DNA from: Shigella phage sb1
Reading direction: 5' to 3' (one strand)
DNA length: 64,000 nucleotides
Sequence record: PQ666539
Below, piece by piece: positions 14,100-14,330 of this stretch. The notes beneath the pieces were generated by a model that searched no databases, had not been told where the DNA came from, and worked only from the letters and a program-made list of their open reading frames with translations. Position 1 is the stretch's first letter, and every line of letters begins with the position of its first letter. Position numbers and translations under genes: made by a program.

Positions 14100-14330
14100 A
14101 TGTTACTAGAATTTAAACAATTTCTTTATTAAGCTTCTATTGATGAATTTATGGGTAAAATTGCCTCTTGTCAAACGATAGAAGGTCTAGAAGAACTTGA
14201 AGCTTATTATAAGAAAAGAGTTAAAGAAACTGAATTAAAAGATACTGATGACATCTCAGTCAGAGATGCTTTGGCAGGAAAAAGAGCTGAATTAGAAGAT
14301 TCAGACGATGAAGTAGAAGAAAGCTTTTAA
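14100..14330 (+). pseudogene. uvsW.1: UvsW.1 small protein, interrupted by in-frame TAA at 14130..14132
   Basis: frame ATG 14100 to TAA 14328..14330 (77 codons) matches recalled T4 UvsW.1 (MLLEFKQFLY-E-ASIDEF...) with Glu replaced by stop. Confidence 0.7.

Follow-up and report, generated by a model that had tools for sequence, protein, structure and literature searches.

The gene uvsW.1 of Shigella phage sb1 (record PQ666539) begins with ATG TTA CTA GAA TTT AAA CAA TTT CTT TAT TAA (14100-14132, read directly), that is, with MLLEFKQFLY followed by a stop, and this raises the question of whether the phage has lost the gene or whether the stop belongs to the sequence record. We considered this question over the window, by which we mean the whole stretch of 64,000 nucleotides analysed, a Tequatrovirus (T4-type) segment that extends from gene 18 to motA and shares 93-96% identity with T4-type phages that use the standard code. 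After the TAA at codon 11 the uvsW.1 frame runs on as ASIDEFMGKIASCQ... up to its usual TAA at 14328-14330. The initial annotation had described a uvsW.1 cut after ten codons by TAA at 14130-14132, in a frame going on to 14330, and both points were confirmed by direct reading of the codons, with GAA>TAA as the change relative to other phages. The elements of the locus are as follows.

12563-14074, plus strand: uvsW helicase gene, 503 aa, frame intact (ORF list and alignment with the RB51 protein)
14075-14093, plus strand: intercistronic hairpin GGGC-TTCG-GCCC (14075-14086), then the uvsW.1 Shine-Dalgarno sequence GGAG (14090-14093), read directly
14100-14330, plus strand: uvsW.1 frame, 76 codons and the normal stop, broken at codon 11 (sequence, Pfam PF11637, PDB 2JPN)
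14130-14132, plus strand: TAA at codon 11 of uvsW.1, G>T at 14130 converting GAA (Glu) to TAA
14151-14330, plus strand: residual 59-aa ORF from Met18, its AUG 18 nt past the TAA
14340-14362, no strand assigned: GGCCC...GGGCC hairpin with A/T runs on both flanks, at the convergent junction of uvsW.1 and uvsY.-2 (read directly; PMC1524935)
14386-14553, minus strand: uvsY.-2, convergent with uvsW.1 (ORF list)

Apart from codon 11, the locus has the layout known from the family, a small separate ORF directly after uvsW, followed by a terminator and a convergent gene. As in T4, uvsW.1 starts after a gap of 25 nt from the end of uvsW, has its own GGAG, and is followed by the conserved bidirectional terminator. 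The segment with the first hairpin and the GGAG (14075-14093) is identical in sb3 and RB51. The hairpin at 14340-14362 is this bidirectional terminator, described as kept across T4-like genomes (PMC1524935); it was left uncalled by a simple terminator scan, its loop of more than 8 nt being beyond the rule of the scan. With Glu restored at codon 11, the protein scores 103.5 bits (cut-off 25) with Pfam PF11637 (UvsW-1), which spans UvsW.1 residues 21-74, and matches the NMR entry of T4 UvsW.1, PDB 2JPN, with E=1e-43; the restored protein differs from T4 UvsW.1 in one other residue, I27 in the window for L27. The frame of about 76 codons, open in all compared relatives, is interrupted in the window by the TAA at codon 11. 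By sequence and synteny, the underlying uvsW.1 is an ordinary UvsW.1 family member and highly conserved. In RB51, sb3 and the window, uvsW and uvsW.1 are two ORFs, an arrangement that has been reported after resequencing (PMC1524935). The T4 RefSeq entry (NC_000866.4, 112677-114440) annotates uvsW as one CDS of 1764 nt that swallows uvsW.1, and carries a sequence-discrepancy note.

Codon 11 is GAA (Glu) in uvsW.1 of T4, RB51, sb3, LF73P3 and KNP1, as well as in three IMG/VR contigs. The initial annotation had placed Glu at this position in T4 and had proposed an alignment to T4 uvsW.1 as a check; the placement was right, with GAA in the T4 RefSeq entry where the window has TAA, and Glu as residue 11 of PDB 2JPN. 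Over 271 nt, the window and Shigella phage sb3 show a single mismatch, T for G at 14130. Only the PQ666539 record was found to have TAA at this codon. The 50,697 phage records searched contained no match to a 55-mer probe with the T allele, in which every 28-base megablast word includes the T at 14130; the control 55-mer with G matched 498 phage records, 424 of them exactly. A 71-mer around the TAA matched 658 records by blastn, none of them identical. Exact scans of IMG/VR, JGI metagenomes and GTDB genomes gave no hit to the 47-mer with TAA, and the 47-mer with GAA, used as positive control, was present in IMG/VR.

One reading of this, whatever holds for other stops in the window, is that a genuine ochre mutation has become fixed in a viable phage, which tolerates either loss of the gene or its replacement by a 59-aa reinitiation product. 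We regard this, the reading implied by the initial annotation, as very unlikely. uvsW.1 is a small accessory gene of reportedly unknown function, although its conservation in T4 and in five further T4-like genomes has been reported too (PMC1524935). An in-frame AUG is present at codon 18, and a 59-aa product from it would keep the complete Pfam UvsW-1 domain (104.5 bits for the remainder); however, the 15 nt preceding the AUG at 14151 contain no GGAG/GAGG-like sequence, which leaves it without a Shine-Dalgarno sequence. In T4 rIIB and in lacI, translation is known to restart downstream of early nonsense codons; a real TAA in uvsW.1 would yield a 10-residue peptide and, by analogy with rIIB, possibly a 59-aa restart product from Met18. 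Against a viable ochre mutant stand the T allele in 0 of the 498 related records, a second GAA>TAA only 1.1 kb away in uvsY, and the membership of the change in an unselected class that is in about fourfold excess across the window.

Premature stops were surveyed by comparing 94 RB51 proteins with the window by tblastn and reading the codon at each in-frame stop. In the 64-kb window, 19 genes were found to contain premature in-frame stops, 27 in all. All but one of them (26/27) are single G>T or C>A changes on the coding strand, namely GAA>TAA, GAG>TAG, GGA>TGA, TCA>TAA and TAC>TAA, the sole exception being TTA>TAA in gene 23. Among the stop types, TAA accounts for 21, TAG for 3 and TGA for 3. 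Gene 34 has four stops and genes 22 and 27, alc, rnlA and nrdA have two each; genes 23, uvsW.1, uvsY, 51, 29, 48, alt.-3, alt.-2, cd.2, pseT.3, 32, 35 and 36 have one. The stops other than that of uvsW.1 are listed below, from tblastn and codon reading and, for uvsY, also from codon comparison with relatives.

5097-5099, plus strand: gene 22 codon 25, TCA>TAA
5367-5369, plus strand: gene 22 codon 115, GAA>TAA
6672-6674, plus strand: gene 23 (major capsid) codon 274, TTA>TAA
15196-15198, minus strand: uvsY codon 8, GAA>TAA
16664-16666, plus strand: gene 51 codon 102, GAA>TAA
17689-17691, plus strand: gene 27 codon 194, GGA>TGA
18130-18132, plus strand: gene 27 codon 341, GAA>TAA
18952-18954, plus strand: gene 29 codon 65, GGA>TGA
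20739-20741, plus strand: gene 48 codon 67, TAC>TAA
22641-22643, minus strand: alt.-3 codon 93, TCA>TAA
24504-24506, minus strand: alt.-2 (alt paralogue) codon 178, GAG>TAG
34742-34744, minus strand: cd.2 codon 23, GAA>TAA
38072-38074, minus strand: pseT.3 codon 29, GAA>TAA
38251-38253, minus strand: alc codon 134, TAG (GAG in T4, GCG in RB51)
38437-38439, minus strand: alc codon 72, GAG>TAG
39293-39295, minus strand: rnlA codon 183, GAA>TAA
39446-39448, minus strand: rnlA codon 132, GGA>TGA
43452-43457, minus strand: nrdA codons 124 and 125, adjacent, both GAA>TAA
48265-48267, minus strand: gene 32 (ssDNA-binding protein) codon 9, GAA>TAA
51772-51774, plus strand: gene 34 codon 371, TCA>TAA
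51841-51843, plus strand: gene 34 codon 394, GAA>TAA
52702-52704, plus strand: gene 34 codon 681, GAA>TAA
54211-54213, plus strand: gene 34 codon 1184, GAA>TAA
55164-55166, plus strand: gene 35 codon 209, GAA>TAA
56285-56287, plus strand: gene 36 codon 190, TCA/TCG>TAA

An apparent stop in 24.3 was left uncounted as an alignment-end effect. The nearest counterpart of the uvsW.1 stop lies on the opposite strand in uvsY, a recombination mediator gene whose start reads MRLEDLQ-TAA; the codon after this TAA is GAC in the window versus GAA in the references. No frameshifts or indels of the nanopore or homopolymer type were found in the stop-bearing genes, all of which align full-length in one frame. 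The 71-mers around the stops of gene 23 and gene 32 gave no exact full-length match among 1311 and 653 matching records, respectively. The implication of the initial annotation that the truncation is particular to uvsW.1 does not hold in view of these data, as the window contains 26 more premature stops in 18 other genes, made by the same type of change with the exception of that in gene 23. In line with established T4 genetics we take genes 22, 23, 27, 29, 32, 48, 51 and 34-36 to be essential. A phage with exactly this sequence could not give progeny and is non-viable as recorded, because the stops fall in genes essential in T4. Here the analogy with early T4 rIIB nonsense mutants also finds its limit: the window's ochre codon has an in-frame AUG within 18 nt, as in those mutants, but T4 nonsense mutants have just one such codon or a few, and are propagated on suppressor hosts, whereas the window has 27 stops of three kinds in 19 genes and a restart codon that lacks a Shine-Dalgarno sequence.

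So many in-frame stops in well conserved genes that can be aligned full-length, 21 of the 27 being TAA, might also be expected if stops were decoded as sense, either by codon reassignment or by a strong suppressor tRNA of host or phage, and the genes were not truncated at all. This is extremely improbable. Each of the three stop codons is found in frame, and homologues have Glu, Ser, Tyr or Leu where the window has TAA, which follows no single rule; TAG aligns to E (E/A at alc codon 134) and TGA to G. The usual gene ends keep their stop codons at conserved places, the substitution class involved is 81% missense with only about 10% stops, a composition that recoding leaves unexplained, and the genome has the close identity to standard-code phages given above. 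No tRNA gene is present within the 64-kb window, and the T4-type tRNA cluster presumably lies outside this segment, as placed on the T4 map. Reassignment or suppression was rejected as contradicted by the inconsistent amino-acid correspondence.

Other differences from RB51 were observed in the window. An ORF of 218 aa (779-1435, plus strand) occupies the 768-nt gap between genes 18 and 19, where the gap in RB51 is about 117 nt; its product is Cys/His-rich and has no Pfam match, and it may be a mobile endonuclease-like insert. An ORF of 175 aa (34801-35328, minus strand) between cd.2 and cd.3 is absent from RB51 and has no Pfam match. Hoc (10404-11822, minus strand) is 472 aa long, versus 376 aa in RB51 and T4, and its internal repeats suggest an extra Ig-like domain.

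The type of change that creates the stops was then considered among all substitutions private to the window, defined as positions where the window departs from a base shared by every reference covering the position, in alignments to T4, RB51, LF73P3 and KNP1. Against these four references the window has 835 private substitutions. Private G>T (135) and C>A (133) add up to 268, versus 64 for the reverse changes T>G plus A>C. When the references were put in the window's place one by one, G:C>T:A stood to A:T>C:G as 72:65, 78:115, 23:16 and 26:20, so that all four controls were near 1:1 and the directional excess was found in the window. This excess amounts to about 200 changes, or about 1.4-1.7% of the G:C positions of the window, and affects both strands. 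The rate of G:C>T:A was alike in all 4-kb bins.

The classes of substitution differ markedly in their coding effects. Coding G:C>T:A changes comprise 21 synonymous, 205 nonsynonymous and 26 nonsense changes, distributed over codon positions 1/2/3 as 105/95/52. In contrast, coding A:T>G:C changes are 214 synonymous, 30 nonsynonymous and 0 nonsense (codon positions 24/11/209), and coding G:C>A:T changes are 111 synonymous, 46 nonsynonymous and 0 nonsense (42/15/100). The A:T>T:A class resembles the transitions, being for the most part synonymous and at third positions. Both transition classes carry the usual mark of purifying selection left by real divergence, and the G:C>T:A class is without it. 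A neutral expectation was obtained by applying G>T/C>A to each coding G:C site in turn. This gave a potential of 80% missense, 12% nonsense and 7% synonymous changes, and 81%, 10% and 8% were observed. With T4 and RB51 as the only references, 23 nonsense changes were observed, against 32 expected at a uniform rate. Stops are thus produced at about the rate expected had selection never acted.

Taken together, these findings make it highly probable that the uvsW.1 TAA is one product of an unselected, window-wide layer of G:C>T:A substitutions, and an artefact rather than a biological truncation. Judged solely from the substitution pattern, artefact status is suggested by the excess of this class, its direction, its uniformity along the window, and its independence of codon position and coding effect. 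Such a layer would sit on the record over the whole 64 kb. One of its changes would have turned G14130 into T, and with it Glu-11 (GAA) into TAA, and the same process would account for about 205 missense changes and, besides the uvsW.1 stop, 25 nonsense codons; the nonsense codon in gene 23 would come from a separate T>A change. The G:C>T:A changes, we infer, never met selection in a replicating phage, and would therefore date from the DNA preparation, from a later step, or from the making of the record. In the phage that the record represents, codon 11 is most probably GAA and UvsW.1 an ordinary, intact protein of 76 aa.

Some changes that look equally unselected are of other types. The start codon of gene 34 (50662-50664, plus strand) reads CTG and that of arn.3 (62942-62940, minus strand) reads AAG; both are ATG in all four references. 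The changes ATG>CTG in gene 34, ATG>AAG in arn.3 and TTA>TAA in gene 23 all have this unselected look and fall outside G:C>T:A, and because of such changes the noise appears to be of more than one kind.

The layer might stem from 8-oxoguanine-type damage that was read as T, from G>T base-calling errors in a low-coverage consensus, G>T being a classical Illumina miscall, or from later corruption of the record. C>A/G>T is a documented signature of oxidative damage in library preparation (Costello et al. 2013, PMC3616734), and the window shares with it the substitution class, the strand symmetry and the lack of selection. In contrast, such 8-oxoG artefacts normally occur at low allele fraction, in a small fraction of the reads (PMC3616734), whereas in the window the changes are in the consensus. 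Such artefacts could enter a consensus only where coverage is very low or through a single-molecule bottleneck, a requirement that counts against an 8-oxoG source. The oxidative artefact is also said to prefer CCG>CAG, and no such bias was evident in the window: no trinucleotide preference could be seen in per-context rates of 0.8-2.3%, which are based on small counts. The CCG context, at 2.25%, was among the highest, but in a rough hand calculation the per-context rates were not separable from a uniform rate.

Long strand runs of G>T versus C>A along the window, as expected from a single-strand template, were not significant (z=-1.1). At short range, however, the changes are significantly clustered, with 44 neighbour pairs within 20 nt versus 23.9 +/- 4.4 expected, and among neighbours within 30 nt, 35 are of the same type and 20 of different type. 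In uvsW, nine private G:C>T:A changes are missense (R182L, A187E, M188I, K190N, T215N, Q219K, P220T, W336L and A424E), and two tight clusters occur in this gene, at 13107-13132 (R182L, A187E, M188I, K190N) and at 13186-13220 (V208V, T215N, Q219K, P220T). Such clusters fit a small number of damaged or poor reads or molecules feeding a thin consensus, and natural mosaic patches may add to the clustering.

Local clustering on the same strand would also suit lesions on individual strands, as would be expected if the substitutions were physically present in a dead-end T4-type genome, hypermutated or guanine-oxidised, that was sequenced before selection acted. A molecule of this kind might come from amplification of a single virion or single molecule, from long-stored or oxidised material, or from replication under an extreme 8-oxoG load. 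It would show the same G:C>T:A signature as an artefact, and the absence of indel-type errors speaks in its favour, but the window by itself does not part the two readings; however, changes at about 1.5% of G:C pairs are far above known in vivo mutator effects, and we consider this origin unlikely. If it were true, uvsW.1 would be truly truncated in that molecule, together with 18 other genes, and its function would still be uninformed. A burst of guanine-directed hypermutation (8-oxoG or apurinic), caused for example by an oxidative host response or a guanine-targeting anti-phage mechanism, seems very improbable. In that case the single non-viable molecule would be a snapshot of lethal mutagenesis, and the uvsW.1 stop one of its scars.

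In summary, the codon-11 stop of uvsW.1, for which we favour the artefact explanation, is best classed as not real as a biological feature. It reflects the quality or history of the sequence and not uvsW.1, and says nothing new about the gene. The apparent truncations of uvsY, gene 32, gene 23, nrdA and genes 34-36 probably have the same cause. Any lone nonsense or missense change in the window is part of the same noise and should be read biologically only with the reads at hand, and the altered UvsW residues fall under the same caution. Were the changes physically real, the window would be the unusual record of a phage genome hypermutated to an extreme degree, and specifically at guanines.
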